From assembly GCA_041737385.1 (NCBI GenBank), contig JBGSRU010000005.1, positions 128-64,127 on the forward strand: 64,000 nt of DNA, read 5' to 3'. Source of the DNA: Candidatus Saccharimonadales bacterium (GTDB lineage: Bacteria; Patescibacteriota; Saccharimonadia; Saccharimonadales; SZUA-47). This document shows, one piece after another, positions 5,890 to 64,000 of this stretch. Made by a program: the position numbers and the translations under genes. Position 1 is the stretch's first letter. The number at the start of each line of letters is the position of its first letter. The notes under the pieces were generated by a model. It ran no database searches and had not been told where the DNA came from. It worked only from the letters and a program-made list of their open reading frames with translations.

Positions 5890-6001
5890 GTTCGTCTCGT
5901 TTCTGCTTTTCTAATGAGGCTTTGTCCATCCAGGATACTGCTTCGTTGACTGCCTGAATGTCTTCACTAGAAATAGGGTGTTCGTCTATGAATTGCTTCA
6001 T
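5873..6001 (-). CDS. candidate cognate antitoxin (small ORF, start uncertain)
   Basis: Hand translation gives MKQFIDEHPISSEDIQAVNEAVSWMDKASLEKQKRDERDLSI*. It overlaps the PIN start by 17 nt. The frame stays open upstream (..TISTRVNKYIFNQERFLA) without a canonical start codon. Confidence 0.35.
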   Translation of the reverse strand: MKQFIDEHPISSEDIQAVNEAVSWMDKASLEKQKRDERDLSI

Positions 6002-6066
6002 TGCAAGGAAGCGTTCCTGGTTGAATATATACTTATTAACGCGAGTGCTAATGGTTACATTTATTT

Positions 6067-6093
6067 GTTTACAGTAAGCTGCCCAGTGTAAAC
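6067..6093. promoter_or_regulatory. 27-bp palindromic site GTTTACA-N13-TGTAAAC, copy 2
   Basis: gtttacagtaagctgcccagtgtaaac, upstream of the PIN/antitoxin pair on the minus strand. Confidence 0.4.
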
Positions 6094-6152
6094 AACTAAG
6101 AAAAACTAGAAAATAATTTAAGAAGCCTAAATGGCGATATTTCCCCGGTTGC

Positions 6153-22500: not shown

Positions 22501-25500
22501 ATATCGCTGCAACCTATGACGGTGTAACGATGAAATTGTTTGTGAACGGTGTCCAAGAATCAGCAACTTCTAAGTCCCTAACTTTGCCGGACAGTAATCG
22601 TCCGCTATTAATCGGGAATGGGTACGGAGGACGCGAATATGGTAAACCGTTGGCGAGCTTTGAAGGAATACTAGACGAAGTACGAATTAGTAACATTGCT
22701 CGCTCCAGCTTTATATCTAAGCCATATTCTCAGAGCCCCCAAGTGGTCTCGCCTACCACATCTGTGAGAAAAATCGGGGTTGAGCAGTGGGACTCATTTG
22801 TTGCGAACGAAACAGCAAATGGCGGCTCAATACGGTATCGTTTATCAAACAATGGCGGCGCTAGCTGGCAGTTCTGGAATGGCGCAAACTGGGTAGCGTC
22901 TAGTTCTCTAGCAGAGTCAAATCCTCAAGCTATCATTAGTGCAAATGTGGCAGAATTTCCTGTAACTTTTGATGGTTTCCTTTGGCAGGCAATTCTGCAG
23001 AGCGATGGAAACCAAAATGTAACCTTGAACAATCTTACTTTGCAGTCAACTTCTGATACAACCTCGCCGACAACTAATGCAGCAAATATTGTTGCCACCA
23101 AAACAAACGGGGGCAGTGCGCTGGCATCAAACGGCTGGACTAATAGTGGCTCTCCAAAATTCACTTGGGATCCAGGTATCGATAGCGGATCTGGAATTCT
23201 TGGCTACTGCGCTTATTTGGGGCTAGATAATTCAGCCGATCCCGTAACAACTGCAGGGTTGCTTGGAGTATCATCAGTAGCAACCGGCGGAAACTGTCAG
23301 TTTATTGTTTCTGGTGAACAGTTGGATACAGCGACGGCAGGGTACCTTTCCAGCCCACTTACGACTTCATCTGCGCCTTACTATTTGACGCTAAAAGCGA
23401 TAGATAAAGGCGGAAATATTTCAAGCACATCAGAACAATTTTTCTTCAGGTTCGATAATACGCCGCCAAGTAATCCTAGTTTTGTAAGCGCACCGTCTGG
23501 ATTCGTAAATGATAAAGCCGTAACCCTAACCTGGCCTACAGCTGGTGGTAGTGCCCCACAGGACGCCAACTCGGGACTTGCTGGACTGCAATATAACATC
23601 GCTAATACGGGATGGTATGGAGATATTCATAGTGGTACCGGCGATGCTTCAGATCTTTTGATAAACGACGGCAGTTATACGATGCAAGATCCACCTGATT
23701 TTACCAATTTAGTCGATGGTATTAACAATGTAACTTTCAGAACGTGGGATGTTGCTGGTAACGTGACAATAAACTATACGACTGCGACGATTAAGCTAAA
23801 CACTTCTGGGGCTCCGTCAGAACCGCAGAATCTGCAAGCATCACCGCCTACAAATGTTGTTAACGCTTTTAGTTATAGTTGGAATGCGCCGGCTTCGTTT
23901 ATTGGTGATAGCAATAATATTCAGTACTGCTATACGGTCAACACCATCCCGACTAGTGGTTCATGTACCTTTACTAGTGGTGGTGTTACGTCACTTGGAT
24001 CAGGTCCATATGCTACTCAACCGGGAGTGAACACGTTGTACGTTGTCGCTCGTGATGAGTCAAACAACATTAACTATGCGAGTTTTAGTTCAGTAAACTT
24101 TACTGCCAATACGCCATCACCAGGAATTCCACTGAACGTAGATATTGTCGATGTTTCGATTAAAGTCACGAATAACTGGCGTTTAGCTTTAACGTGGGAA
24201 GAGCCGACGAATACGGGTGCGGGCATAGCAAGTTACAAAATCTATCGCTCAACAGACAATACAAGCTTTTCTCAAATTGGTAGCAGCTCAAGCACCACTT
24301 ATATTGATGCTGGATTGTCCCAGCAACGCTACTATTACTACGTTATTGGTTGTGATAGTACTAATAATTGTGGTGCAGATTCTGCTCGTATTAACGAACT
24401 GCCAACTGGCAAATTCACCTCGCCAGCTAGTCTGACTGCAGATCCTGTCGTTACAAATGTCACCACTAAAAAAGCGCTAATAAGCTGGAGTACTGATAGG
24501 CCAAGTGATTCAAGAATCGCAATCGGTACGACAAGCGGTACGTATAGCTCAGCTGAAGTTGCGAACTCTGAGCAGCTCACCGCTCACAATATCCAACTCG
24601 ATAATCTGAGTGCGGCAACAACGTATTACTACGTTGCAAAATGGACTGATGAGGATGGAAATATTGGTGCTAGCCAAGAGTACACGTTTATTACTGCTCC
24701 GGCTCCAACAATTAAAGAAGTATCGGTGCTTAAAACTACACTTAACAACTCCCTGATTCAATTTACCTCACGTAACGCAGCAAAAGTCGATCTAGTTTAT
24801 GGCAAGTCAGAATCTTTCGGTGGTGTCGTCAGCGTCAATACGTCAATCGAAGAATCTACCTATAGTGTTGATCTCAACTTACTTGATGATGGTGCAAAAT
24901 ACCTATTTAAAATCGTATCGTACGACAGTGAAGGTAATAGTTATGATGGTAATATATTCTCGTTCTCAACACCTCCTCGTCCACGCATAAATAATCTCCG
25001 CTTCCAGCCAATTGACGGTGAGCCAACAAGTACCCAGAGCGTCACTTGGCAGACAAATGTCCCGTCAACTACCAGTATCACCTACGGTAAAATTGATACT
25101 ACTGGTACTGTTTCACAAGAGAATGTTCTGGTTACAAATCACGAAATAGTTATCAGGAATCTACAAGACGATAGCGACTATTTCTTGGTTGCACAAAGTC
25201 GTGACGGTGATGGTAATCTAGCTATCTCAGACAGACAAGTATTTAGAACTGCCTTGGATACGAGACCACCGAAAATTAGTGATATCGTCATAGAAACATC
25301 TATCAGAGGGACAGGTGCAGAGGCCAGAGGCCAAGTAATTGTATCGTGGCGAACTGATGAGCCAGCCACCAGTCAAGTCGCCTATAGCGAAGGAAGCAAC
25401 GCAGTGTCTTTCAACAATAGAACTTCTGAAGGCAGCGGACTCGGTACTGAACATATTGTTATCGTGTCTGACTTACCAACTTCGCGAGTTTATAGCATCC

Positions 25501-25628
25501 AACCTATTGCGAAAGATCGTTCTAGTAATGAGGGCAGTGGTGAAGTGCAGACAGCAATCATAGGAAGAGCATCTGACAGCGTACTCACTATAATATTGAC
25601 AACTTTGCAGAGAGTATTTGGGTTTTAA
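19512..25628 (+). CDS. giant surface protein: N-terminal TM, split LamG domain enclosing about 13 propeller-type repeats, then multiple FN3/Ig-like domains
   Basis: 2038-aa ORF. LamG_3 N-half ALFHFDESSG..DSSSNGNNGT..DYVSVPDS..LEAWTKL. About 13 repeats of the form YAGLG...GDxEVWxWNGxxWTKIGGDxLNxxW. LamG C-half SWRHIAATYDGVTMKLFVNG...GILDEVRISNIARS. FN3-like segments, e.g. ISWSTDRPSDSRIAIG..TTYYYV. Confidence 0.85.
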   Translation: MHIRQGSRHGIRGLLQVVRPVFLMLKKFYFSLLFFACFYLELYSARLFARFVVLSVALLRFLHSKTVRRLDERLTRRSNPYRKWSSWRFSQPLQKLTLGVYSLLIGTLLFSQLQTILAAPDLLDIWNFATPANYTIDNGLQTNGTSLEMKPQNYVSDANTAALFHFDESSGVSAVDSSSNGNNGTINNSSFVGGQLFNGLELNNTNDYVSVPDSTSISLNQQNSLEAWTKLSTSFDSTNHDRRQSIIDKGDYQLYYDNETGKITYELANGSSNTWNQEAGNGVQNSWTTSSSRTVTSSAAIGSSVYVGLGNQTTDAAVWRWDGGVWTRIGGDGLNNSWQSQTYEDVYSMTTDGTNLYVGLGVTAGDGEVWMWNGATWTKIGGDGINNGWQVSTFETIWALDYFGGTLYAGLGSSANDGEVWSWNGTTWTKIGGDSLNSGWTTNYEIAGTLTNDGTNLYAGLGVSTGDAEIWRWNGTVWTKIGGDGLNTSWNTSYETVRTLKYFSGTLYAGLGDSAGDAEIWTWNGTAWSQIGGDGLSGSWATNYEGVYAIGTDGTNIYAGLGTGNGDGEVWRLSAGVWSQIGGDGLSAGWSTNEGDVVQTLVNIGSTVYAGTYDTGGGGYLSSWNGTTWTRLGGQYVNKSWGFFGQGTVEVMQAAGEYLYAGMGNTLGSAQVWRFDGANWELVGGQGVNSSWSENTYETITSMSSHNGNLYAGLGNSANDGEVWMWNGTNWTKIGGDSLNSGWTTNFEEVNALASYNGNLYAGLGNSANDGEVWMWNGTNWTKIGGDSLNSGWTTNYERVSSLGVFNGQLVAGLGASAGDAEVWTWNGTVWTKIGGDSLNSGWTTNYEQVEAIIPYNNSLLVSLGNTAGDAEVWSWNGTVWTKIGGDDLNGSWTDGTYERARTLAVYNGDVYAGLGSSSGDGEVWRYRDNSWTKLAGNNVNGSWSNTIEEVEAFSAYKGKLYAGTGNTANADGAVWSIGNNGFLQSTTSSFDTSWRHIAATYDGVTMKLFVNGVQESATSKSLTLPDSNRPLLIGNGYGGREYGKPLASFEGILDEVRISNIARSSFISKPYSQSPQVVSPTTSVRKIGVEQWDSFVANETANGGSIRYRLSNNGGASWQFWNGANWVASSSLAESNPQAIISANVAEFPVTFDGFLWQAILQSDGNQNVTLNNLTLQSTSDTTSPTTNAANIVATKTNGGSALASNGWTNSGSPKFTWDPGIDSGSGILGYCAYLGLDNSADPVTTAGLLGVSSVATGGNCQFIVSGEQLDTATAGYLSSPLTTSSAPYYLTLKAIDKGGNISSTSEQFFFRFDNTPPSNPSFVSAPSGFVNDKAVTLTWPTAGGSAPQDANSGLAGLQYNIANTGWYGDIHSGTGDASDLLINDGSYTMQDPPDFTNLVDGINNVTFRTWDVAGNVTINYTTATIKLNTSGAPSEPQNLQASPPTNVVNAFSYSWNAPASFIGDSNNIQYCYTVNTIPTSGSCTFTSGGVTSLGSGPYATQPGVNTLYVVARDESNNINYASFSSVNFTANTPSPGIPLNVDIVDVSIKVTNNWRLALTWEEPTNTGAGIASYKIYRSTDNTSFSQIGSSSSTTYIDAGLSQQRYYYYVIGCDSTNNCGADSARINELPTGKFTSPASLTADPVVTNVTTKKALISWSTDRPSDSRIAIGTTSGTYSSAEVANSEQLTAHNIQLDNLSAATTYYYVAKWTDEDGNIGASQEYTFITAPAPTIKEVSVLKTTLNNSLIQFTSRNAAKVDLVYGKSESFGGVVSVNTSIEESTYSVDLNLLDDGAKYLFKIVSYDSEGNSYDGNIFSFSTPPRPRINNLRFQPIDGEPTSTQSVTWQTNVPSTTSITYGKIDTTGTVSQENVLVTNHEIVIRNLQDDSDYFLVAQSRDGDGNLAISDRQVFRTALDTRPPKISDIVIETSIRGTGAEARGQVIVSWRTDEPATSQVAYSEGSNAVSFNNRTSEGSGLGTEHIVIVSDLPTSRVYSIQPIAKDRSSNEGSGEVQTAIIGRASDSVLTIILTTLQRVFGF
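20364..22467 (+). repeat. in-frame array of about 13 repeats of about 47-50 codons each (blade-like)
   Basis: The W.WNG..W..IGGD motif recurs 13 times in the translation. Confidence 0.85.
21628..21900 (+). repeat. perfect 123-bp direct duplication with 150-bp period, inside the repeat array
   Basis: 21628-21750 is identical to 21778-21900 (ataatggtaatttgtacgccggccttggtaacagcgcgaatgacggcgaagtttggatgtggaacggcacaaattggaccaaaatcggtggcgacagcctaaactctggctggaccacaaact). The 3' about 50 bp recur again near 22003-22050. Confidence 0.95.
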
Positions 25629-51286: not shown

Positions 51287-51362
51287 TTCAATTCTAATCT
51301 GGGTATTAAAAAGTCAGAACCGAATACCAGCTCTGACTTCATCTATCACAGCTTGGCTCACC
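51287..51362. repeat. junction repeat B1
   Basis: ttcaattctaatctgggtattaaaaagtcagaaccgaataccagctctgacttcatctatcacagcttggctcacc. By eye about 70 percent identical to B2. Read on the minus strand: GAGCCAAGC, then hairpin AGTCAGA/TCTGACT, then a T-run. Confidence 0.7.
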
Positions 51363-51417
51363 ATAATATAGAATGTCATAACCACGACTAAGCAGGGCTT
51401 AATTTTGAAACGTTGTT

Positions 51418-52338
51418 CTATATCGTAATAACTACACTTCCTTTTTTACGGCCAGAGTCAACGTAGTGGTTCGCTTCGACTATGTCATCAATATCAAATG
51501 TCTTTTCGATTGTTGCTACTAGTATGCCGCCGTCGAACATATCTGCAAGTTCTTCTAAGTCGGAAGATGATTCTTTTGCAACATCAAGACTATTAACAGT
51601 AATATACTTACCGTCCACGGCAATCAGATGAGATGCTGCTGATTTCGATATTTTTCCTACAGCATCAAAGACTACATCAAAAGAACCCTTAATATCCTTT
51701 AGGCCGGTTTTTTTGTAGTTATAAACTTTCGAAGCACCGAGTTTCTTTGTGAGATCCATTCCGTCCGGACCGCACACTGCTGTAACTTCGCCGCCAAGAT
51801 ACTTGGCGATTTGTACTGCAGATGTCCCAACCGCACCGGTTGAACCGTAGATTAATACTTTCTTATTCTTACTTACACCAGCTTTACGTAAAAAGTATAG
51901 TGCTGTATTACCGCCAAATGGCAAGGCACTAGCTTCTTCGAAGCTGGCTTTCTTTGGCTTGAGAGCAATTGCTCGCTTTTCAGGCAGGGCGCAATATTCT
52001 GCAAAAGCACCGAAGCTAAAGCCAGTCATGGCATATATTTCATCCCCAACTTTGAACCTGGTAACTTCATCGCCTACTTCAACAACTTCTCCTGCCATAA
52101 CGCTTCCTTGAATTCGTTTCGGCTTTTTGATTCCGACGAGTAAACGTATGACAATCTTGCTAACAAATCCTTTTGCTCCGCTGCCTGCATCTAGTGCACG
52201 CATACGAACGTCGCCAGAATTAAGTGATGCTGCCATTACTTTAATCAGAATTTCGTTACTTTTAGGCTTTGGTTTTGCAACGTCTTTCACACTAAGGACT
52301 TCAGGCCCGCCGTATCCTTTAGCTATAACTGCTTTCAT
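51418..52338 (-). CDS. medium-chain dehydrogenase/reductase (quinone oxidoreductase-like)
   Basis: VLIYGSTGAVGTSAVQIAK Rossmann motif and a GroES-like N-domain. Confidence 0.85.
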   Translation of the reverse strand: MKAVIAKGYGGPEVLSVKDVAKPKPKSNEILIKVMAASLNSGDVRMRALDAGSGAKGFVSKIVIRLLVGIKKPKRIQGSVMAGEVVEVGDEVTRFKVGDEIYAMTGFSFGAFAEYCALPEKRAIALKPKKASFEEASALPFGGNTALYFLRKAGVSKNKKVLIYGSTGAVGTSAVQIAKYLGGEVTAVCGPDGMDLTKKLGASKVYNYKKTGLKDIKGSFDVVFDAVGKISKSAASHLIAVDGKYITVNSLDVAKESSSDLEELADMFDGGILVATIEKTFDIDDIVEANHYVDSGRKKGSVVITI

Positions 52339-52348
52339 ATGATTTCTC

Positions 52349-53008
52349 CTAATTCACCCTTTTTAATAATCTATCTAGCGATTCCAGTATGAGCTCGAGT
52401 CCAAAGTGGAAATCTTGAATTCCATCATGCGTCCCATTGATAATAGAGAGCGACATGTTGTGCATGTAGGGATGGGTTTCTTTTGGTATAACCGGCAAGA
52501 ATTGTTTCGCTGCAGCTTTAAATTCAGATGGTTGCAAAGGAAAATTTTGGCTCTGCAAATTGAATCCATATATGTAACTATCAATAGTATTCCATGCATA
52601 GTCGGTCAGTTTGTAGGAGAAACCCGCACTTAAAAGGTAGCCGATTGTTGTATCGACATACTTCAGCATGTTTGGCCCTACATTAATACCAGCAACAAAC
52701 TCATGTGCTGCCCACGGATGCTGGATGAGTGTTGCTCTCATCAAGTCAGCACGCTTGCGCAATGCATCTTTCCAGTCGAAACAAGTTTCGAGCGAGGGGA
52801 TAGATGGTGTAACTTCGTCGACCATTTCAGCGATCAATTCATTTTTGTTTTTAATGTGGTGATAGAGTGACATCGCTTCTACGTCTAATTTATCGGCCAG
52901 TCTACGCATGGAGAGGTAAGATAAGCCGTACCCATCTGCTAATGCTATAGCCTCAGCAACTATTTTGCCACGTGATAACTTTGGGTTATTTTTTTGCTTG
53001 TCTTTCAT
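52349..53008 (-). CDS. TetR-family transcriptional regulator
   Basis: N-terminal HTH LSMRRLADKLDVEAMSLYHHIKNK. Confidence 0.85.
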   Translation of the reverse strand: MKDKQKNNPKLSRGKIVAEAIALADGYGLSYLSMRRLADKLDVEAMSLYHHIKNKNELIAEMVDEVTPSIPSLETCFDWKDALRKRADLMRATLIQHPWAAHEFVAGINVGPNMLKYVDTTIGYLLSAGFSYKLTDYAWNTIDSYIYGFNLQSQNFPLQPSEFKAAAKQFLPVIPKETHPYMHNMSLSIINGTHDGIQDFHFGLELILESLDRLLKRVN

Positions 53009-54242: not shown

Positions 54243-54932
54243 TTAACCTACACTGGGTCTTTTAACAACTAAATCTAATTCTGGTTTGTCTTTTTGCAGA
54301 TTAACAATAATTTTTTCTACTAGGTAATCTGGCGACATAAAATTTGTAAAGTCTTCTGGTAACGCTTCATCGTGTAAGTGAGTTTTTGTACCACCTGGGT
54401 AAACAGACAGTATTTTTACTGGATTACTTTTATTTTCTGCTCGTAGAGCATCTATATACCCTCGAAGAGCCCATTTACTAGACGCATACAACTTTGCTCC
54501 AACAGACCTAGATGCATCGAGGGCAGCACTTGATAAAAGATTTAATATGTAACCTTCCTTCATATTTAATAATGCTGTTCTAGAACCAAGCACAGCACCG
54601 AAGAAATTTACATCAAACATCTCGTGTGCTCTGTTCATATCCAATAATACTGTTCTGGGAAATTTCATAAATAGGCCAGCACTATTTACCCAAATATCGA
54701 TATTGCCAAAAGTTTTAATGGTAAATTCTGCAAGGTCTCTTAAGCCCTGCTCATTACGAACGTCAACAACAAATGACTTAGCACCAATTTCTTTTGCTGC
54801 ATCATCAAGTGTTTTTTTAGTTCGGCTTGCAATAACTACGTTTGCACCCTCAGCAACTAAACTTTTTGCAAATTCCTTGCCTATGCCTTGGCTGCCGCCA
54901 ACCACAACGACAGTTTTATTATTTAAGTTCAT
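54243..54932 (-). CDS. SDR-family oxidoreductase
   Basis: VVVVGGSQGIG, NSAG and YASSKWA motifs. The start is reassigned to the ATG at 54932, 6 nt downstream of TATAAT. Confidence 0.85.
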   Translation of the reverse strand: MNLNNKTVVVVGGSQGIGKEFAKSLVAEGANVVIASRTKKTLDDAAKEIGAKSFVVDVRNEQGLRDLAEFTIKTFGNIDIWVNSAGLFMKFPRTVLLDMNRAHEMFDVNFFGAVLGSRTALLNMKEGYILNLLSSAALDASRSVGAKLYASSKWALRGYIDALRAENKSNPVKILSVYPGGTKTHLHDEALPEDFTNFMSPDYLVEKIIVNLQKDKPELDLVVKRPSVG

Positions 54933-54948
54933 AGAATAATTATAACCC

Positions 54949-54990
54949 AAACAAAAACACTATGTTTCTATAGTGCTTATGCTTGACTCC
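54949..54990. repeat. junction repeat A1 (left part)
   Basis: aaacaaaaacactatgtttctatagtgcttatgcttgactcc. On the minus strand it reads as hairpin CACTAT/ATAGTG plus TTTTTGTTT. Confidence 0.85.
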
Positions 54991-55240
54991 AGAGTGAGAT
55001 AGTCCAGTAGACTATTGCAAGGGGACACACTCTAGAAAACTTGTTTTCTAAGACGTGGTGACGAGGTCGCGGAACGTGACTGGATATAGGTCACACAACA
55101 AATCTGTGCGCCGAGTGTACTCGGGCAACATGCTTGTTATCGAACCTAGCGACCCACTGTCTTGCAAGGCAATCCAGGGTCACAGGTGAATCAGTCCCGA
55201 AAATAAACTAAAAACAGACCCTGATGGGTCTGGTCTTAGT
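54991..55240 (-). ncRNA. candidate structured RNA nested inside junction repeat A1 (about 250 nt, unknown class)
   Basis: No ORF. At least 6 local hairpins: agagtg/cactct, atagtc/gactat, tagaaaac/gttttcta, gtgac/gtcac, ccgag/ctcgg, cagaccc/gggtctg. Flanked by ttgactc and ttggctc. Confidence 0.3.
55198..55232 (-). terminator. rho-independent terminator downstream of the 356-aa gene
   Basis: On the minus strand: CAGACCC-ATCA-GGGTCTG followed by TTTTTAGTTTATTTT. Confidence 0.6.
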
Positions 55241-55270
55241 TTGGCTCGCAGTTGTGGACATGATGCGAAC
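55241..55270. repeat. junction repeat A1 (right part, hairpin H1)
   Basis: ttggctcgcagttgtggacatgatgcgaac matches A2 positions 56482-56510. Confidence 0.8.
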
Positions 55271-55318: not shown

Positions 55319-56389
55319 CTATTGTGTTTTATCGACTTCTTTCACGAATATCCATTCAGAATTAGTATCTGTACGAGTAAGATAGATCAGAGGAAATTCA
55401 GATAAACCATCCACACTATAATTTACTTCAACATTCTTATCATCCTTTTCCCACACAATCCTGGAAACCTTAACATCTGAGATGTTTTTAATAGACTCAA
55501 TTTTTGACACGATTGCGGCTTGCTGTTTCTTAGCTTCATTATAGCTCGCAATACTTACACAGTTTAGTCCATCAAAATTGTTTATGCCACTATGAGTAGC
55601 TTGGCATAACAAATACTGGTTCGTGTAGGTATTCTCGGAATAATACTCATTGTCTTCGGGAGCTATCAAATCTGAAAGAACGAAACCTTTACTTTTTATA
55701 TATTCTTCAATTTCAGCTTTGGTAACATCAGATGCTTGATAGCGAACCCCGAATAACTTCCTTATACTTAAAGGAAGTTCAGTAAGATATGCATTTCCGG
55801 GTTGTTCAGTTAAATATTCTGGATTAGGAAGAGATTCAGACCATTCTGTAAGACCTTGGATGGTTTCTTCGATAGAGCTCCAGCTAGTATCTGCGAGATT
55901 ATTCGATACATTTGTAGTTGTTTCTTTGTTCTCATCCACTGGTGTCAAAGCTACAATTGCAATTAAAAGTCCCACCAAAAATATCGCAGATAAAATTAAA
56001 CTTATCTTGAGCCATTTTCTGGATTTTTTCTGAAGATTATCCATCGAAGGATAACTATTATTCTTAGTTTTATCTTTAGCATAACCTATGTAGATAAAAA
56101 TAATACCTACAAAAAAAGGTATTAAGTATAAGTAATTTTGGGCTAAAAATATCATCGAACCAGATGTAATTGAAATCAAATAACCAATAATGTAGTACAT
56201 CCTTGCAGTACTAGATAACTTAACATTAGGAGGTTGCTGAGGTTGCTGAGGTTGCTGAGGTTGCTGAGGTTGCTGAGGTTGCTGAGGTTGCTGAGGTTGC
56301 TGAGTAACCTCAGTTTGCTGTGGAGGTGTACTGCTAGTCGTATTTATATTATCCTGTTGTTGATTATCTTCATTATTATCCATAAACAC
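55319..56389 (-). CDS. membrane protein with N-terminal Q/P-rich low-complexity region
   Basis: 356-aa ORF with (QQP)x8, several predicted TM segments (not counted) and a C-terminal soluble domain. No family recognised. Confidence 0.6.
   Translation of the reverse strand: MFMDNNEDNQQQDNINTTSSTPPQQTEVTQQPQQPQQPQQPQQPQQPQQPQQPPNVKLSSTARMYYIIGYLISITSGSMIFLAQNYLYLIPFFVGIIFIYIGYAKDKTKNNSYPSMDNLQKKSRKWLKISLILSAIFLVGLLIAIVALTPVDENKETTTNVSNNLADTSWSSIEETIQGLTEWSESLPNPEYLTEQPGNAYLTELPLSIRKLFGVRYQASDVTKAEIEEYIKSKGFVLSDLIAPEDNEYYSENTYTNQYLLCQATHSGINNFDGLNCVSIASYNEAKKQQAAIVSKIESIKNISDVKVSRIVWEKDDKNVEVNYSVDGLSEFPLIYLTRTDTNSEWIFVKEVDKTQ
56232..56303. repeat. perfect 9-bp tandem repeat (ggttgctga) x8 encoding (QQP)8
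   Basis: Read directly from the sequence. Confidence 0.95.
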
Positions 56390-56447
56390 TCCAGTTATTA
56401 TTTAAACTATAGCATTATAGAGATAAGTAGGGAATATATAGAGAGCA

Positions 56448-56510
56448 AAACAAAAACACTATGTTTCCATAGTGCTTATGCTTGGCTCGCAGTTGTAGAC
56501 ATGATGCGAA
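56448..56510. repeat. junction repeat A2 (uninterrupted form)
   Basis: aaacaaaaacactatgtttccatagtgcttatgcttggctcgcagttgtagacatgatgcgaa. Confidence 0.85.
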
Positions 56511-56548
56511 TTATTAAATAAAAAGCGATAGGGGATAGAGTCAAATTG

Positions 56549-56779
56549 CTACCAAGGTATAATTAGAGCAAAGAACCAGCTAATAGCGTCACCAATACTA
56601 TTTGAACCTTTTCTCATCATGAATGCACCCATTAACATAACTGCTAAGCCACCAATAATTCCTAGAATTTTGTAAAATAAAGTGAAATCATTTAGGACCG
56701 ATACAACAACTGCAAAAATTCCAACAATTACCAAAAAGAAACCCATAACTACAAGAAGTGCTTTTACAATTGTTTTCAT
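56549..56779 (-). CDS. small two/three-TM membrane protein
   Basis: 76 aa, hydrophobic. TGAGATAAT lies 6 nt upstream of the ATG. Confidence 0.5.
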   Translation of the reverse strand: MKTIVKALLVVMGFFLVIVGIFAVVVSVLNDFTLFYKILGIIGGLAVMLMGAFMMRKGSNSIGDAISWFFALIIPW

Positions 56780-56796
56780 ATAGCCATTATCTCACA

Positions 56797-56860
56797 AAAC
56801 AAAAACACTATGTTTCTATAGTGCTTATGCTTGGCTCTCTGCAGTTGAGGACGTTCGAAC
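56797..56860. repeat. junction repeat A3
   Basis: aaacaaaaacactatgtttctatagtgcttatgcttggctctctgcagttgaggacgttcgaac. Confidence 0.85.
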
Positions 56861-56910
56861 TAGTCTTTTTGACGATTCATTCTGTAAACTATAAGTGGTA
56901 TTATCGTATT

Positions 56911-57294
56911 ATGAACAAAAATATTCTTATTAAAATTCTTTCTTTGGTCATTTCGGTTATTGGAATTTTTATTGCACTGAAATTTGTATCTATAAGAGAC
57001 TATAAGTACATTATTATTGTTGGGAGTGGGTTGTTACCATTACTTGCCTTCAAGTCAAAAGAGCCAAAGGATTCTACAGATATTGAAAAGTCTGAGTTTT
57101 TAAAAAGCATTCTATTAGCTACGGTAATCTTTTTTAGCGGTTTAGGGTTTGTGTTTATCATAAGTTTTGCGTCTAATCTTGAGACCAAGTCAATTACTAG
57201 GGAGATTCCGTTCATAGTAGGGATGTTGGTAGTTTCATTGGCCACAATATTTATTATCACTAAAGCTATATACAGGTATTATAAGTCAAAATAG
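56911..57294 (+). CDS. four-TM membrane protein, hypothetical
   Basis: Start reassigned to the ATG at 56911 (MNKNILIKILSL), 6 nt after TGgTATTAT. The upstream part of the track ORF overlaps repeat A3. Confidence 0.5.
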   Translation: MNKNILIKILSLVISVIGIFIALKFVSIRDYKYIIIVGSGLLPLLAFKSKEPKDSTDIEKSEFLKSILLATVIFFSGLGFVFIISFASNLETKSITREIPFIVGMLVVSLATIFIITKAIYRYYKSK

Positions 57295-57314
57295 TTCTAT
57301 CTCCAGCTTGGGGT

Positions 57315-57370
57315 AAACAAAAACAGAAGCCTTACGACTTCTGTTATTTATAACGCTTATGCTTGGCTCC
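57315..57370. repeat. junction repeat A4 (left part; same flanks, different hairpin stem)
   Basis: aaacaaaaac-AGAAGccttacgaCTTCT-gttatttataacgcttatgcttggctcc. Confidence 0.8.
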
Positions 57371-57513
57371 GGAGACTGGATGGGAGGGACCTAATTCGCC
57401 TGTTTGTCGTAGTACGACAGGGAATTAGCGAACCAATTGCTACGCAATAATCTGGTTCGAGGCCAGAACTCGGAAGTAAATAAAATAGCCCCACAAATGT
57501 GAGGCAATTTATT
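57371..57513 (-). ncRNA. candidate structured RNA nested inside junction repeat A4 (about 140 nt, cloverleaf-like)
   Basis: Three hairpins closed by a stem: ctaattcgcctg..cagggaattag, ttgc-tac-gcaa, and tctgg-ttcgagg-ccaga. The terminal hairpin is fully paired only as minus-strand RNA (GCCUCACA/UGUGGGGC with a U-G pair). Confidence 0.3.
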
Positions 57514-57542
57514 TGGCTCGCACTGGCAAACGAACTGCGAAC
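57514..57542. repeat. junction repeat A4 (right part, hairpin H1 variant)
   Basis: ttggctcgcactggcaaacgaactgcgaac. It has the same TCGCA/TGCGA stem as A1b and A2 but a different loop. Confidence 0.75.
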
Positions 57543-57811
57543 GGCTAGTATGGACTACGACAAAAGCGAAGTTCGTAACATCAAGGGACTGCTACTTAGC
57601 GTGGCATAGCCCCCCTATGCCTTGACCTTTGATATTTCAGAAAGCTCGTAAACGCACATACTACCTAAAAATGTGTCGCTATCAAAAAATCATTTGTTTT
57701 CCGAAATAGCCCAACAACTACAACGCACTAACAGTGGTAGCTTTGTTGGGAATAATTGTTAGAAAAAGACGATATTTTCAGCACATACCCTTACGGCTGT
57801 AAAATAGAAAT

Positions 57812-58762
57812 ATGACAAAGCAGATAACAAAGAAACAGCACTTCGCACCACGCTTTTATTTCAAACGGTTTGCTGTTGATAATATGTTACAGACTTTAGA
57901 TATTCAAAAAGGCAAACTTATAAAAGCACGACCTTATAGCGGTGTTTGTTATGCCGACTTTTACTACGCTGTTGAAACTGGAAAAGAAGACGAAACAAGC
58001 CAAGTATTTGAACAGTATTTTAGCGACATTGAAGATAAGTTTGCCAAAGAGTATGACGCCATCGTTGACGCAATATGGAACTATCGCCCACTAACAGACC
58101 AGCAGTTAGATATTCTAGCGTGGTTTATGGCTTCCCTTTGGATTAGAAGTCCGCATATGCGAAGACAGGTAAACAAGACTATGGCTGATGGTATGAAGCA
58201 AATAACTACATTAATGGCTTCACACCCAAACTTTACCGAAGGGGCTAAAGAAGGTTTAGAAAAAGAGGGACATAAAGTATCTGATGAGCAGATTGAAAAC
58301 GCTAGAAAGACGCTTGAAAGTGGCGAGTATGAACTAACCTTTGAGAATAACATCAACCACCTAAATCTGATTGCACACTGTGAAGAGTTTCATAGGTGGT
58401 TTCTTATAAAAAAATGGCGGTTTTATTTAGCCAAAGGCTCAAAAAAGTTCATAACTACCGATACACCAGTGATTGAAGTATTCAATAAAACTGGTAAAAC
58501 AATGATTGAAAAAATGTACAGCAACCATATAGCCCAAAGACGACACTACTTTGCTTTGACACCCGAAATACTAATTGAGCTTATTGACCCTCTAACTCCT
58601 GGCAAGAAGCAAAAACGGCACGCACTATCAGACGATAGAGCGGTGATTGAAATAAACCGCCTACTTGTTATCTACTCAAAAGATTATGCCTACGCCAATG
58701 ACAAAGAGTATCTTGAAGATTTACTACAATTCTATACAGGCGTACCACAGGAAGTGATATAG
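57812..58762 (+). CDS. DUF4238-family protein (family of the single-gene anti-phage system Rst_DUF4238)
   Basis: The N-terminal KKQHFAPRFYFKRFA matches the H(Y/F)xP(Q/R)FYL(K/R)xF signature I recall for DUF4238. Size 316 aa. Confidence 0.6.
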   Translation: MTKQITKKQHFAPRFYFKRFAVDNMLQTLDIQKGKLIKARPYSGVCYADFYYAVETGKEDETSQVFEQYFSDIEDKFAKEYDAIVDAIWNYRPLTDQQLDILAWFMASLWIRSPHMRRQVNKTMADGMKQITTLMASHPNFTEGAKEGLEKEGHKVSDEQIENARKTLESGEYELTFENNINHLNLIAHCEEFHRWFLIKKWRFYLAKGSKKFITTDTPVIEVFNKTGKTMIEKMYSNHIAQRRHYFALTPEILIELIDPLTPGKKQKRHALSDDRAVIEINRLLVIYSKDYAYANDKEYLEDLLQFYTGVPQEVI

Positions 58763-58856
58763 GGGGGGGTAGTCGCCCCTTGTTCTAGCGTTTAGAGACT
58801 CCGCCGTGTATATACCTAATTTGTGGGAGCAGAAAAAACCAAGTGTTTTTCTATAC

Positions 58857-59609
58857 CTAGACTGACAACCTTTTGTCTTCGTATTCTTTCTGTTCAATCG
58901 CCTTTTGTTTTATCTTATCAAGTATGTCCCTCGGTCCAGATAGGTAGCTCTCAAACTCTTTAATGTTTGAGTCCTTAATCCAAAGCTGACCCTCGCCAAC
59001 ATTGCCCCTATGCTGACCTTTTGAGAAATACTTATTACTTTCAACATCGTGGCTAGAAAGCACCCAATACCTAATAGCGTCACGCCATACGCCGACCCAG
59101 ACAAAAACATCACAGTGTGCAGGTTTTATCTGCTGAAAGTTCATATCAAAACCGTGTGTAGAGTCGCTAGAAAGGGCTTTGTTAATAAGCGAGTCGCCAC
59201 TTTTTCTTTTGACAGCCCGTGAAGCTTTTACTTCAATGCGAACACCCTCATACCAAAAATCATAATCGCCTGCATAAGCGTCGTGGTAGTCTTTTGAGGG
59301 ACGCTTTAGCTCAGGTGCAAGCTCATTGAGGTGTCGTTGAGCCCACGTTTCGCCGAAAGTTCTAGGTGCTGTAATTTCAAAAATATACAGATACTTGTTT
59401 TTCTCAAGATAGGCATTTCTTATCTCAAGGTATTGGTCTAGGTTTAATATGTCTTCCGCAATCAAGTGGCTAATAACATACTCAAACTTGTTAAAAGGAA
59501 ACACAGAGTAAAGACTGTCTAGTGCTTCATCGCTCAAATCATACTTATCGCCACACTTGTCGTGTAACCTTTTAATTTCTGCCTTTAATTCTTCAATCAG
59601 TTGTTCCAT
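58857..59609 (-). CDS. putative type II restriction endonuclease (PD-(D/E)xK)
   Basis: GDYDFWYEGVRIEVKAS fits D..(11-13)..ExK. Overlaps the methylase stop by 17 nt. Confidence 0.45.
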   Translation of the reverse strand: MEQLIEELKAEIKRLHDKCGDKYDLSDEALDSLYSVFPFNKFEYVISHLIAEDILNLDQYLEIRNAYLEKNKYLYIFEITAPRTFGETWAQRHLNELAPELKRPSKDYHDAYAGDYDFWYEGVRIEVKASRAVKRKSGDSLINKALSSDSTHGFDMNFQQIKPAHCDVFVWVGVWRDAIRYWVLSSHDVESNKYFSKGQHRGNVGEGQLWIKDSNIKEFESYLSGPRDILDKIKQKAIEQKEYEDKRLSV

Positions 59610-61335
59610 ATACTTCCTTCTTTATACACTTTATCTCAATAGCACTTATCTTGTAATAGTTGTAGATAAAATCTTGTAGCTTTTTATCGTCTGTTTTTCC
59701 TAAAATAACGTCATCAACCATATTGCTAACAACCTTATCTGTCTTGCTGTCTATTTCAGGAAACGGTAGCTGTAACAAATTGCCTTTCAAGATTTTAATC
59801 TCACGAAATAGCTTCATATACAAATACTGATAAAGTTCGGAGTTAAGAAAAGCAGAAACAGACTTTACCGACATATTAGGCACGTTTGGAACTAGTATAT
59901 TTGCACTATTTAGAAAAAGGCTTGCCGAATCATCAACAGCGAAGACTAGTTTTTTAGAAATGAACTTATAGACAAGTTTTGGTTTTGCTCTGTAAATCTC
60001 GTCTTTGGCAACCTGTTGAAGTTGACTGCGGTCATATCTTATGTAGTACTTTGAAGGCTTCAAAGTATAAGGAGCAATTTCTTTACCTGTGTATATTTTT
60101 TCTAGGTCTTTCTTTGCTTCAAGATGAAGCTTCTCTTTATTGCTACCCGTAACAATCCCTAATGCCCAAATACTCTCACTCAAATCGTAACGCTTTTGTT
60201 CTAGAACCTTTTCTATGATTGACTCGTCTGTTGAGTCAGATAGTCGGAAGATATAGTTAGGGTTATCGCTATAAACTGCCTTTTCTACGCCCCACGAACG
60301 ATTAGCTACGTCAATTTCAACTTCACTTGAGTTGCCTGAATAGTTTGCCGTGAGTGCCACATACTTAGTAGTTACTCCGCTAAACAGGTCAGCGTACATT
60401 TTTATAGCAACTAAATCAGCTTTGGTCAGCAGATAATGACGAATATCTCTGTGAGTTTTTACATTAAGAATTGACTCGGGTAGCAGAAACCTTAATTGAC
60501 CAGATTTTTTCAATCGTCTGTGTGCTTCTACCAAGAAACAAGAAAATGTTTCCCCTGATATAATCTCAGGATAATTTTTTGTATTGGTTACTGAAGCACC
60601 CCAAGGTGGATTAGTAACTATATAGTCAAACTTTAGGTCTAAATCTTTTCCGTTAGAGCTAAGAAAGTCATCATTGAATATGTTGACGACCTTTGCCTTA
60701 GGAAACCTTAGAAAATAATTGAACTTAGCAATCATAACTGCGATAGGGTCAATGTCAGTTGCAAAGATATTTTCTGGCTTGATATTAGGTATGTTCAAGA
60801 GGTAAACAAGACTACCGCAACAAGGGTCTAATACTTTACTCGCCGATGTAAGTTTTATGTCTTCAACCATATCTCTCACGACACTCTTAGGCGTGTAGTA
60901 AGAGCCTTGGGCATTTTTGACACCCTCTTGTAATAGACATTGGTAAATTAAGCCCAGTAAATCACTTTCGTCTTTCGGAAAATCGTCTATATTCAAATCT
61001 TCAATAACTGAATACCCACAGTCGTCAAGAAACTTGCTAATCAAAGGGTTACTAGCTACATTTGAGTCTTTTACAATGCCGTTTAATGCTAATAGTTTTA
61101 CGCCAACTGAAAATAACACTTTACCTGTGTCGTCATACTTTTCAGCAAGCTTTTGAGTTATGTCTTCAATTTTCTTAATGTTCGGCTTGCTGTCAAAGTA
61201 CTCAACAGGAGTTATACGCTTTGTGGAAAGCCTTTTATTCGCCCTTGATACTAGCTTGCCTTCGGTTGTGTTTACCCCTAGCTTTTCCCAGTTTCTCTTC
61301 GTGGCTTCTGATACTTGGTTATTTGTTTTCGGCAT
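59593..61335 (-). CDS. N6-adenine DNA methyltransferase (gamma class, Eco57I/TaqI-like with C-terminal specificity domain)
   Basis: Motif I VLDPCCGS lies upstream of motif IV TNPPWG. Confidence 0.85.
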   Translation of the reverse strand: MPKTNNQVSEATKRNWEKLGVNTTEGKLVSRANKRLSTKRITPVEYFDSKPNIKKIEDITQKLAEKYDDTGKVLFSVGVKLLALNGIVKDSNVASNPLISKFLDDCGYSVIEDLNIDDFPKDESDLLGLIYQCLLQEGVKNAQGSYYTPKSVVRDMVEDIKLTSASKVLDPCCGSLVYLLNIPNIKPENIFATDIDPIAVMIAKFNYFLRFPKAKVVNIFNDDFLSSNGKDLDLKFDYIVTNPPWGASVTNTKNYPEIISGETFSCFLVEAHRRLKKSGQLRFLLPESILNVKTHRDIRHYLLTKADLVAIKMYADLFSGVTTKYVALTANYSGNSSEVEIDVANRSWGVEKAVYSDNPNYIFRLSDSTDESIIEKVLEQKRYDLSESIWALGIVTGSNKEKLHLEAKKDLEKIYTGKEIAPYTLKPSKYYIRYDRSQLQQVAKDEIYRAKPKLVYKFISKKLVFAVDDSASLFLNSANILVPNVPNMSVKSVSAFLNSELYQYLYMKLFREIKILKGNLLQLPFPEIDSKTDKVVSNMVDDVILGKTDDKKLQDFIYNYYKISAIEIKCIKKEVYGTTD

Positions 61336-61340
61336 ATTCC

Positions 61341-61529
61341 CTAATTACTTTTTTCAATAAACTTTATTAAATCGACTTTTTTGTATCGCATAGCCTTACG
61401 ACTACCTAGACGGAACGCCTTCAACGTGCCGTTTCTGTCCCAATTACGAAGCGTTGGTTGACTGACTTGTAGAAACTTGCTTGCTTGGGCGAGTGTCAGA
61501 TATTCAGGTTCGTCATTTTTAGCGTTCAT
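61341..61529 (-). CDS. excisionase/MerR-type HTH DNA-binding protein
   Basis: YLTLAQASKFLQVSQPTLRNWDRNG is an HTH_17-type motif. 62 aa. Confidence 0.7.
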   Translation of the reverse strand: MNAKNDEPEYLTLAQASKFLQVSQPTLRNWDRNGTLKAFRLGSRKAMRYKKVDLIKFIEKSN

Positions 61530-61548
61530 ACTACCAATATCATATAAT

Positions 61549-61572
61549 AAGTACTAAGTACTTGGAAGTACT
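61549..61572. promoter_or_regulatory. three AAGTACT repeats in a divergent promoter region
   Basis: aagtact at 61549, 61556 and 61566. TATAAT at 61544-61549. Confidence 0.4.
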
Positions 61573-61590
61573 AAGAAAAGACGTAGCGAA

Positions 61591-62340
61591 ATGGCAGATG
61601 ACAAAAGTAGTAAAGAAGTTTCACTAAACCTAGATGACCCAAAATATAGTAAGGGGTTGTCCGTTGACGAGTGGCAAAAACTTTCCAAGCAAAACCCTAC
61701 TACTCTAACGCCTTCACAACAAAAAACACTTACCCAAGCAAACGATAGTATTAGAGAAGCCACGAAAGGCATAAGCACCCAACTGGCAAGTATAGTAAAG
61801 GGTGTTTCAATGCCCGACATACGCTCACTTATGCCAGATATTCCAAAGTCGCCAGCCTTGTCTATTTCCAGCCTATCGTTACCACCGATTGAAACCTATC
61901 AGCCAAACTTTGATGATATAGACTTTACACCAGATACAACGATGGTTGATAACCAAATCAAACAGACCGCTTTATTAGAACGCCTGCTTGAAGTCCAAAG
62001 CCAACAGCAACAAAATAGCGATTTGATGAAACTGATTGAGCCACGTTATGACCGCAAGAAACGTGTTATCACGTTCGCCAATACTCAAACAAGGCTCGTT
62101 GCTGACAGCGATAATGAAATTATATGTAAAAAGTTATTTTGGGACGGACGCCCCGTAAGACGCCCTGTTGAAAAAGGCGACATTATGGAACTGCTAGGTA
62201 CTACTGACAAGAAGGCTTTCTATAACAAGGTTGCTTCCTTGAATAAACTCATTGAAAAAACGACAGGTGTTGATAAGCTATTTGATTTTGTTGATAAAAA
62301 ACTCTGGTTCAATACCAAATACGTAGAATTACCTCTGTAA
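61591..62340 (+). CDS. hypothetical protein
   Basis: 249-aa ORF. No family recognised. Confidence 0.5.
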   Translation: MADDKSSKEVSLNLDDPKYSKGLSVDEWQKLSKQNPTTLTPSQQKTLTQANDSIREATKGISTQLASIVKGVSMPDIRSLMPDIPKSPALSISSLSLPPIETYQPNFDDIDFTPDTTMVDNQIKQTALLERLLEVQSQQQQNSDLMKLIEPRYDRKKRVITFANTQTRLVADSDNEIICKKLFWDGRPVRRPVEKGDIMELLGTTDKKAFYNKVASLNKLIEKTTGVDKLFDFVDKKLWFNTKYVELPL

Positions 62341-62376
62341 GACGTCTGCGGACACCTACTTTCACATACTGGAAGT

Positions 62377-62541
62377 ATGGACAACCAAATAGAGCCAAAG
62401 CCAAATACAACCGTCATTGACGAGCCTGAATTGGTATTAGACGAAGACGAGCAGTTTCAACTCGCCAAGTTTCTTGACGCTCTTTTGGAAGCCGATATGA
62501 CCAATAAAAGTAACGAAAGGCAACGCAAGCAATGTTTGTAA
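62377..62541 (+). CDS. small acidic hypothetical protein (54 aa)
   Basis: Hand translation gives MDNQIEPKPNTTVIDEPELVLDEDEQFQLAKFLDALLEADMTNKSNERQRKQCL*. Below the track's cutoff. Confidence 0.3.
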   Translation: MDNQIEPKPNTTVIDEPELVLDEDEQFQLAKFLDALLEADMTNKSNERQRKQCL

Positions 62542-62831
62542 GTGAAGTCAGCGTAATGCCCGTCAAGCCAAACAATGGCTTGATAGCCATAGCCAGCGTT
62601 GTTATAAACGACTGTATCTACCTCAATTCTATTGCCGTTTATACCAAACTAGACGGCTCGTATCGCCTGCTTTACCCGACAAAACAAGTAGGTAATAAGT
62701 CGGTTGGTTATCACTACCCAATCAACCGACCAACTAGCAGGTTGATAGAAGACGCCGTGTTCAAAAAATGTAGCGAACTATTTCAAGGAAGTAACGATGA
62801 TAGACACGGTAAAAATACTTTTGACTTATAG
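62532..62831 (+). CDS. SpoVG-like protein
   Basis: VSEVSVMPVKPNNGLIAIASVVINDCIYLNSIAVY parallels the SpoVG N-terminus (..V.....G.L.A.ASI..D..F.V..I.V). Confidence 0.5.
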   Translation: MFVSEVSVMPVKPNNGLIAIASVVINDCIYLNSIAVYTKLDGSYRLLYPTKQVGNKSVGYHYPINRPTSRLIEDAVFKKCSELFQGSNDDRHGKNTFDL

Positions 62832-63921
62832 CAGTCAGCCAAAATGGGTAACGGAAGCCAAGCTATTCACTAACGTAGACGCAACTAAAGGCGTCTTCGT
62901 GGCATACAACAACCCAAGTAGTGCCTATAAGAAACTAGGCATTTACCAGCCACGCCTTACATATACCGAAAGACCAAGAGGTAGGCATATCAAGTCGTAT
63001 CAACTTGCCGTTGAGTTTTCCGCACCGAAGCTACTTTTCAGCAACAACTTCACGGAACTAACGGACGCCGACTTTGACGCCGTTATTGCCAAGCTGTCAG
63101 AAGTACTACGCACGACTTATGGCGTTTGGGTATTTCCGCACTTATTGACTAATGCCCAAGTGGGTAAAATAGACTACTCAAAAAACATCGTGTTTGATGA
63201 CCACACACCAGTTTCAACCATTACAGAAATACTGCGTAAAGCTGACATATCACGCCGTTACGATGTTCAGCATACCAACTTCAAGAATGGCGGACACGTC
63301 TATCACATACACACTAACAGCCTTGATATTGCCTTCTATGATAAGGTTGCCGATTTACGCCAAAACAAAGTCAGTGAAAAGCGTAGTTATGAAAAAGGTG
63401 GCTATACACAGTTGAGCCTACTAGACGAATTAGAAAAGCAAAAGACAGTCAGCGTTGCTCGTTTTGAGATACGACTAAATGGCGTTGCCAAACTACGCAA
63501 AGAACTAAAAGTTATTGGTGTTGATAGTACCGACATTACCTTTCGCACACTTTTCAAGACCGACATATCACGCAAGGTACTACTACGGCACTGGAAGAAC
63601 ATATTTGATGAACTGCCCAAAGCACCGTTTGCCGTATTAGACACTGCTGAACAAAACCTTATTTCGTATAAACAATCATACCCATACGCCAAGCCAGCCG
63701 AAACAGCCTTTGCTGTAATGCTCGCTATGATACGCAAAGACCACGATGACGAACGCTATGTTCGCAATGTCATAGAAGAATTGTTTGGTAAGCACACCTA
63801 CTACCGATACAAACGCAACGGACGCTCGCCACCTACCAAAACCCAACTCAAAACTTTACTACATATAGAAGCCACACTGACAGAAATGAAACCTGTGAGT
63901 ATTGACGACTATACGCTGTAA
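62797..63921 (+). CDS. replication initiation protein, Rep_trans / gene II-like (rolling-circle type)
   Basis: MIDTVKIL N-terminus. LDIAFYDK and ARFEIRL resemble the YDK and R.E.el motifs of Rep_trans. VYHIHT could be an HUH-like motif. Confidence 0.55.
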   Translation: MIDTVKILLTYSSQPKWVTEAKLFTNVDATKGVFVAYNNPSSAYKKLGIYQPRLTYTERPRGRHIKSYQLAVEFSAPKLLFSNNFTELTDADFDAVIAKLSEVLRTTYGVWVFPHLLTNAQVGKIDYSKNIVFDDHTPVSTITEILRKADISRRYDVQHTNFKNGGHVYHIHTNSLDIAFYDKVADLRQNKVSEKRSYEKGGYTQLSLLDELEKQKTVSVARFEIRLNGVAKLRKELKVIGVDSTDITFRTLFKTDISRKVLLRHWKNIFDELPKAPFAVLDTAEQNLISYKQSYPYAKPAETAFAVMLAMIRKDHDDERYVRNVIEELFGKHTYYRYKRNGRSPPTKTQLKTLLHIEATLTEMKPVSIDDYTL

Positions 63922-64000
63922 ATTATAAGGTATTAGTAGCAAATATCATCAAATATCACTATAATTCAACTATGAAAAGGAATAGCCACTATGAAAAACG

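Follow-up and report, generated by a model that had tools for sequence, protein, structure and literature searches.

The 64,000-nt stretch analyzed here (the window) contains, at 57370-57512, a 143-nt non-coding unit that had been described, from its letters alone, as a cloverleaf-like element at the edge of a mobile element. We find that the region around it, 57300-57545 on the minus strand, is probably a stack of site-specific-recombination junctions lying downstream of a tRNA-Asn(GUU) gene, and that the 143-bp unit is best read as a non-coding recombination-site cassette within this stack. The host is a Saccharibacterium (TM7) whose tRNA-Asn gene is trailed by an array of cassettes. Coordinates of the features are collected in Table 1, and loci outside the window carry labels of the form L001, L002 and so on.

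The tRNA gene itself lies just beyond the window. A public contig (L001), found through an exact-protein look-up of the DUF4238 gene at 57812-58762, is identical to window positions 56804-64000 (a 7197-nt overlap) and extends 4.8 kb beyond the window; it carries an intact tRNA-Asn(GUU) at 8697-8771 on the minus strand (67.6 bits; window-equivalent 65500-65574). The last 18 nt of this tRNA plus one base (ATCCAGTCTCCGGAGCCAA) are repeated exactly at 57363-57381 (19 of 19 positions, compared with L001 8696-8714), and the window holds no other significant match to the tRNA. Because this repeat is exact, the 'tccggag' strand of the closing stem is the displaced acceptor 3' strand of tRNA-Asn, with the tRNA sense on the minus strand (TCCGGA, the acceptor sequence, is palindromic). 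The first-pass annotation had suggested a tRNA-like or tmRNA-like attachment-site remnant, citing the position at the boundary of an integrated element, and a remnant derived from a tRNA is what we find at that boundary: the direct repeat of the tRNA 3' end lies on the far side of the inserted DNA and the intact tRNA on the near side, a serine recombinase gene adjoins the tRNA at the proximal junction (a site-specific recombinase gene is similarly placed in L051, L056 and L061), and the corresponding empty site, in which tRNA-Asn abuts the trailer and terminator directly, occurs in related genomes. The same annotation had also seen a T arm on the plus strand; the arm is there (TCTGG-TTCGAGG-CCAGA at 57451-57467, followed by ACTCGGA), but the tRNA sense is minus and the arm is an inverted, diverged copy of the tRNA half-site.

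The two copies of the short repeat bounding the unit, GCTTGGCTC at 57361-57369 and a second TTGGCTC at 57513-57519, stand where they had been annotated, apart from an offset of one base in two of the coordinates. Calling the 143 nt between them an insert is justified because the surrounding repeat also exists in unsplit form (56446-56511, which serves as the 'empty' comparison, and 56795-56860), and because about 250 nt interrupt a second copy (54947-55270) at the corresponding point. In the sense of the tRNA, the cassette consists of the core, a short trailer (ATAAATT), a terminator (57505-57488) with its T-run, and a 112-nt module (57475-57364). The terminator hairpin is fully paired as minus-strand RNA only, as had been noted (its U.G pair forms on that strand, where TATTTTATTT follows), and the terminator scan likewise reports it on the minus strand only. 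The 19 nt at the 3' end of the module are the tRNA copy (T-stem, acceptor and GCCA strand), and its 5' arm, UUCCGAGUUCUGG, is an imperfect inverted copy of them, with a GTT placed 18 nt from a pseudo-core GAAGTAA. In the minimum-free-energy fold the two arms pair to form a closing helix from which two hairpins emerge, namely P3 (CGAACCA paired with UGGUUCG, capped by AUUGC-GUA-GCAAU) and P4 (CUAAUUCCCUGUCG...CGACAAACAGGCGAAUUAG). The three hairpins with a closing stem that the annotation had drawn are therefore present, as a three-way junction; this 112-nt core folds at -34.8 kcal/mol (z = -3.3, with 0 of 200 shuffles as stable), and a 281-nt stretch has z = -1.8 when folded as plus strand and z = -2.6 as minus strand.

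An island of about 8.0 kb, flanked on both sides by the 7-bp core, separates the tRNA-Asn gene from the 143-bp unit. Its tRNA-proximal end encodes a large serine recombinase (LSR) of 516 amino acids with Resolvase, Recombinase and Zn_ribbon_recom domains (L001 7188-8738, window-equivalent 63991-65541); the gene starts at 63991 and runs beyond the window end. Islands with this DUF4238...LSR layout are common among Saccharibacteria, and their LSR ends adjoin different tRNA genes (tRNA-Asn in L051 and L053, tRNA-Pro in L056 and L057, and tRNA-Gly in L061) with LSRs that differ correspondingly, which argues that the LSR is the integrase. The tRNA-Asn island of L051 has no direct repeat of 8 bp or more, as is expected for an LSR, and its far end has no module; the 19-bp repeat therefore belongs to the cassette and not to the island. 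We accordingly rejected the possibility that the module is the end of the 8-kb island: elsewhere it is found by itself immediately 3' of tRNA-Asn, with repeats of 19 bp (L007), 20 bp (L021) and 16 bp (L063). Of the earlier statement that the insert sits at the edge of a mobile element, the adjacency to the island holds, but the 143-nt unit is not simply the island end; since it is found elsewhere without the island, it is an independent non-coding cassette. The simplest history has two steps, in which the cassette came to lie beside tRNA-Asn first and the 8.0-kb island later entered between them at the core, so that TTGGCTC now flanks both the island (57513-57519 and window-equivalent 65499-65505) and the cassette.

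Several further observations concern this island family. The last ~14 codons of the LSR open reading frame (ORF) run across the 3' part of tRNA-Asn, which is encoded on the other strand, and the same is true in L051. The tRNA-Pro islands of L056-L060 (for example, L057 14158-17779) contain an OLD-family ATPase/TOPRIM gene together with a UvrD-like helicase gene, a Gabija-like pair, and other related DUF4238/LSR islands carry restriction-modification genes; the family seems to shuttle defence systems.

The cassette array is not peculiar to this strain. Scanning one genome per species with the left half of the junction repeat (57300-57362) retrieved 49 loci, nearly all from Candidatus Saccharibacteria. 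In at least nine of them (L003, L008, L012, L019, L020, L023, L031, L032 and L048) the sequence GAGCCAAGCATAAGC, a hairpin and TTTTTGTTT directly continue an intact tRNA-Asn, which identifies the left half of the repeat as the trailer and terminator of tRNA-Asn in its empty-site form. In the other loci the trailer is preceded by one of a few classes of sequences of about 18-24 nt that start with GTTCG, GTTAT or GTTGCG. Under a looser definition we count ~110 unique junctions from many species, with four to six of them within 8 kb in several loci; those of the window are at 51353, 54983, 55241, 56482, 56831, 57363 and 57513. Every junction has the form [half-site]-GAGCCAA-[trailer + terminator], and the intervals that separate the junctions hold one gene or a few, with very diverse functions. 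These loci are cassette arrays anchored on tRNA-Asn.

The arrays show some additional features. Following the trailer terminator (TTTTTGTTT) there is usually a TATACT or TATAAT box with the ATG of the cassette 6-8 nt downstream and no Shine-Dalgarno sequence (for example, at 54932-54960 and 56779-56800 in the window and at junctions in L010, L019, L034, L036 and L045); a promoter at the junction may drive the cassette genes as leaderless mRNAs. The TetR and zinc-dehydrogenase pair at 51418-53008 recurs in the tRNA-Asn array of another species (L030) with 75-79% protein identity, and multi-gene cassettes are apparently common to different species. A 'class C' non-coding unit ends in ...CTGTTAA-AGTTCGTGACCTGTATGGG-GAGCCAA, with an anticodon-loop-like CTGTTAA, a T-arm-like hairpin and the shorter, 18-nt (attB-type) spacing described next; in L013 (minus sense, 6075-6270) it forms a 195-nt cassette immediately behind tRNA-Asn, and others are found in L002, L004, L009, L022, L025, L027, L041 and L042. 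About 5 kb from the class C junction of L002 is an ORF for an RVT_1 reverse transcriptase (5259-6833).

The geometry of the junctions bears on the type of enzyme involved. The distance from the GTT motif to the core GAGCCAA is bimodal, with 21 cases (the tRNAs included) at 18 nt and 57 cases at 23 or 24 nt; the 18-nt spacing is that of tRNA-Asn and the class C sites, and the longer spacing is that of the two main classes, A and B. In serine integrases the motif bound by the zinc-ribbon domain lies 5 bp nearer the centre in attB than in attP (PMC3783163), and attP half-sites longer than attB half-sites by about 5 bp are what the two modes of GTT spacing present. The agreement with this 5-bp shift leads us to assign the 3' half of tRNA-Asn as an attB-type half-site. 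The 23-24-nt sequences at 57520-57542, 55248-55270, 56489-56511, 56838-56860 and 51360-51382 would then be attP-type half-sites (all but the last belong to class A, which occurs in many other loci as well), and the implied full sites would measure ~43 bp for the host type and ~53 bp for the element type.

The module belongs to a family. About 12 related modules, in at least four subfamilies, are present in the genomes of other species with the same plan, the same order of parts and the same leading terminator; a trailer and terminator open every one of them, and inverted arms of the 57451-57475 kind recur. The three-way junction is also found in L020, L021, L043, L047, L063 and window 54990-55205, and in L020, L043, L047 and L063 the modules lie within arrays. 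A metagenome scan with the P3/cap sequence found one contig, L063. Two further approaches were of limited use: RNAalifold was uninformative on three modules aligned with MAFFT, where helices were misaligned, and a duplex-energy scan for more modules was noisy, with real tRNAs dominating its matches. In L021, an inverted copy of the tRNA 3' end (GTATGGCTCCCGGGGTCGGATT, at 329-400) lies behind the module's own tRNA-end copy and terminator, which suggests a second module or a tRNA fragment in opposite orientation.

These comparisons allow us to weigh the explanation that the unit has no function at all and is a scar, in which partial tRNA copies and leftovers of element ends have accumulated from successive integrations and deletions at a tRNA-Asn hot spot, and in which the fold is incidental, arising because the TCCGGA sequence of the acceptor and GGTTCGAACC of the T arm are nearly palindromic. 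Partial tRNAs and degenerate remnants are usual in tRNA-anchored islands (bioRxiv 10.1101/2020.12.28.424599), the acceptor is palindromic, and decayed versions of the module exist at 54947-55270 and in L063b. Against this, the three-way junction, part order and leading terminator have been kept in different species and subfamilies, and helices have changed while remaining paired: the P3 cap position holds five different helices across modules, and the base of P4 goes from CUAAUU/AAUUAG in the window to CUGAUG/CAUCAG in L063b. Arms also fit their own partners better than those of other modules (mean -12.8 versus -9.3 kcal/mol, with the own partner ranking first in four of eight), and the arm pair of L063c does not match its host tRNA, which indicates that this unit travels as a whole. 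The compensatory changes in cap and P4, the own-arm fit and L063c are evidence for selection on pairing. The conserved plan and the compensatory changes make a pure scar quite unlikely in our estimation.

Alternatively, the unit might be an expressed small RNA that mimics the acceptor/T-arm minihelix of a tRNA and serves as a decoy or substrate for an enzyme recognizing the tRNA-Asn acceptor end, an explanation we regard as unlikely. Such an RNA would have a helix of ~12 bp starting with U1-A72 and a single-stranded G-CCA end, and it might arise through read-through co-transcription from tRNA-Asn and processing by tRNA-end enzymes. The modules of the window, L020, L021, L063 and L047 all keep the closing helix and the 3' GCCA tail, their arms co-varying, and the compensatory changes in cap and P4 speak for an RNA as well. 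Moreover, the module always has the orientation of the tRNA, often directly behind it, and the hairpin upstream is a good terminator in the tRNA sense only. That hairpin, however, stands between the tRNA and the module, and the promoter/terminator scan of the region detected no promoter-like site between the two terminators that flank the module. Sense and antisense modules fold about equally stably, so that G.U pairs give no strand signal and could not be used, as we had tried, to choose a strand. The module lacks an anticodon-like loop and has no Rfam or ARAGORN match, and its decayed copies persist in arrays in the same way as other cassette junctions. The equal stability of the folds on both strands, the flanking terminators and the lack of a preceding promoter-like site lead us to favor a role at the level of DNA.

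In the DNA-level mechanism that we propose, recombination would take place in or beside the core, which corresponds to the discriminator G, CCA and one further A, with the 3' half of tRNA-Asn serving as the attB-type half-site and the 23-24-nt sites as attP-type half-sites. Newcomers would enter beside the tRNA and push older units outward, where they would decay; in the window, the copy farther from the tRNA (54947-55270) is the decayed one. The module may be conserved because both of its arms are half-sites for recognition by the recombinase that mimic the tRNA 3' half, it may also provide a terminator for the tRNA transcript, and it presumably moves, or once moved, in trans as a non-autonomous cassette.

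Several findings weigh against this interpretation. The modules adjacent to a tRNA match the tRNA of their host exactly over 16-20 nt, in four hosts with differing tRNAs; a crossover restricted to the 7-bp core would not account for this. The trailer side of an orphan cassette looks attB-type, contrary to the canonical rules of serine integrases, and the direct arm of the module is an incomplete half-site as duplex DNA because the P4 hairpin displaces the GGTTCG motif. Recombinase genes are scarce near the arrays: a Pfam census of the loci placed Resolvase domains in 2 of 122 large ORFs, with no integrase among the recurring families. Because the loci were retrieved with the trailer sequence itself, the apparent invariance of the trailer is inflated and is partly a selection effect. 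Finally, for the window strain, whose contigs are carried by one sample only, exact-protein look-ups returned the same sample or nothing, and neither a circular form nor a polymorphic empty site was found.

The first-pass annotation had further pointed to a superficial resemblance to transfer-messenger RNA (tmRNA). A tRNA, a plus-sense tRNA pseudogene or a (permuted) tmRNA-like gene with a 27-codon tag ending in VA-stop is, on our results, highly improbable. What recommends it is the T-arm-like hairpin on the plus strand with its TTCGAGG loop, along with a frame (GCA AAC GAA ... GTG GCA TAG) that starts ANE... and ends ...SVA-TAG, with the stop inside the hairpin at 57603-57621. ARAGORN, however, reports no tRNA or tmRNA, permuted forms included, anywhere in the window, and Rfam gives no match at gathering thresholds and, at E <= 10 over 57200-57900, two chance matches of which none is tRNA-like or tmRNA-like (no RF00005); the same tools do recover the true tRNA-Asn in L001. 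The tag does not fare better: the island end (57543-57811) is homologous to other DUF4238/LSR islands only from 57811 to ~57641 (to CATAGGGGGG in L051), the homologous end of the L051 island lacks the 27-codon frame as well as the hairpin's 3' arm, and the frame begins inside the recombination half-site. We therefore reject the tmRNA reading. A promoter-like TTGATA-16-TAGTAT at 57658-57685 (minus strand) faces outward at the island end, in the direction of the half-site and of the terminator at 57488-57505; a transcript started there would be ~160 nt long. Promoter-like sites are only a little more numerous in the region than expected from shuffling.

Among known systems, the tRNA-anchored island of the tycheposon type is the closest concept. 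In Prochlorococcus, tycheposons use tyrosine or large serine recombinases to integrate at tRNA 3' ends; earlier arrivals are displaced outward by later ones, tandem elements have partial tRNAs between them, and degenerate remnants accumulate (bioRxiv 10.1101/2020.12.28.424599). The system described here differs in its host, a member of the candidate phyla radiation (CPR), in that most units are single-gene or non-coding cassettes without a recombinase, in junctions that share a fixed 7-bp core and a conserved trailer/terminator, and in the palindromic module mimicking a tRNA 3' half, which the description of tycheposons does not contain; these same properties (host lineage, a predominance of recombinase-less mini-cassettes, the core-plus-trailer junction and the module) are what sets it apart from known islands. 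As in the LSR integrase systems of A118/LI, Bxb1 and phiC31 (PMC3783163), the recombinase gene is at the tRNA-proximal end, and the distal motif of the host-type half-site, at 18 nt, is 5 bp closer to the centre than that of the element-type half-site, at 23-24 nt. A difference is that the orphan cassettes here pair an attP-type with an attB-type arm; between such a site and attB, canonical integrases would not be expected to act.

Integrons offer a second comparison. They share with these loci an array of small, mostly promoterless-looking cassettes at one anchor, with recurring junctions and with non-coding cassettes, and the module follows the logic of attC in being an imperfect palindrome whose arms rebuild a copy of the target site. 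The core, however, is GAGCCAA and not GTTRRRY, the anchor is a tRNA gene and not attI, and cassette orientation is mixed. By inspection we found no RYYYAAC/GTTRRRY (R''/R') pairs and no attC hairpins at the junctions of coding cassettes, no R''/L''-L'/R' pairs at coding cassettes, and no IntI tyrosine recombinase; an integron attC was rejected on these grounds. We would advance only tentatively, as a rather doubtful extension, the idea of an integron-like array at the tRNA-Asn 3' end that is driven by serine recombinases and in which the 'cloverleaf' represents a new class of palindromic, acceptor/T-arm-mimicking cassette, either an attC-like site or a minihelix RNA. Like miniature inverted-repeat transposable elements (MITEs) and cis-mobilizable elements (CIMEs) derived from integrative elements, the unit is short and non-autonomous and has no coding sequence; att-type repeats (here, flanking copies of the core) bound it, and it has imperfect inverted arms and many copies in subfamilies. 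Unlike those of MITEs, its copies are confined to one specific insertion site per genome, the tRNA-Asn array; there is no cognate transposase, and the 'terminal inverted repeat' is the target sequence itself. In the literature searched we found no published description of such a system in Saccharibacteria.

Saccharibacteria and other CPR bacteria have tiny genomes, and the ways in which they gain and lose genes are little understood. Here, a single tRNA gene is the landing pad, over many species, for very diverse cargo, including restriction-modification genes, enzymes and membrane proteins, and the stereotyped geometry of the junctions points to large serine recombinases. Should this role of the LSRs be borne out, the site and the enzymes acting on it would lend themselves to introducing DNA into such bacteria, which are hard to engineer, and the palindromic non-coding cassette would count as an attachment-site module of a new kind.

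Table 1. Features of the tRNA-Asn-anchored junctions in the window, and loci with related modules
Feature	Position	Strand	Evidence or remarks
tRNA-Asn trailer (GCATAAGC...), terminator hairpin 57322-57345 and TTTTTGTTT run	57300..57362	-	Terminator scan
Exact 19-bp copy of the tRNA-Asn 3' end (ATCCAGTCTCCGGAGCCA plus A), including core GAGCCAA at 57363-57369	57363..57381	-	
112-nt structured module, three-way junction	57364..57475	-	Fold z = -3.3
Inverted, diverged copy of the tRNA-Asn T-arm/acceptor 3' half-site	57451..57475	+	Read from sequence; pairs with the direct copy
Cassette's own trailer (ATAAATT), Rho-independent-type terminator (hairpin 57488-57505), T-run 57478-57487	57478..57512	-	
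Second 7-bp core GAGCCAA (plus-strand TTGGCTC), island/cassette junction	57513..57519	-	
23-nt class A half-site GTTCGCAGTTCGTTTGCCAGTGC, proposed attP-type arm of the island far end	57520..57542	-	
Non-coding island end, with hairpin 57603-57621 and chance 27-codon frame 57526-57609 overlapping the half-site	57543..57811		
Island body	57812..64000	+	DUF4238, 250-aa ORF, N6 DNA methylase, HTH_17, 249-aa and 374-aa ORFs
Older, decayed copy of a 57300-57545-type arrangement: class A half-site 55248-55270, core 55241-55247, terminator 55215-55232, decayed module, degenerate copy of the tRNA 3' end (core GAGTCAA, 54983-54989), trailer 54947-54982	54947..55270	-	Fold z = -5.9, terminator scan
Unsplit junction (half-site, core, trailer/terminator) between two coding cassettes	56446..56511	-	
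Unsplit junction, half-site variant GTTCGAACGTCCTCAACTGCAGA	56795..56860	-	
Most tRNA-distal junction of the window: class B half-site GTTATGACATTCTATATTATGGT at 51360-51382, core 51353-51359, trailer/terminator of variant form	51287..51382	-	
Related modules	L020, L021, L007a, L007b, L043, L036, L037, L047, L063a, L063b, L063c; decayed, window 54990-55205		

The decayed copy at 54947-55270 retains GGGTCGCTAGGTTCGAT, which agrees with tRNA-Asn at 15 of 16 positions plus one inserted A, and ATCCAGTC; an intact relative of it is found in L047. Two repetitive ORFs were seen elsewhere in the window. At 56230-56310, approximately nine tandem 9-nt units (GAGGTTGCT) lie inside the minus-strand ORF 55319-56389 (356 amino acids, no Pfam family), forming an in-frame tripeptide repeat whose length could vary. 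A 2038-aa ORF at 19512-25628 contains about ten repeats of 150 nt (50 amino acids) at 20487-22190, with a W-N-G-T-x-W-T-K-I-G-G-D-like motif and with the local GC content raised to 0.49.

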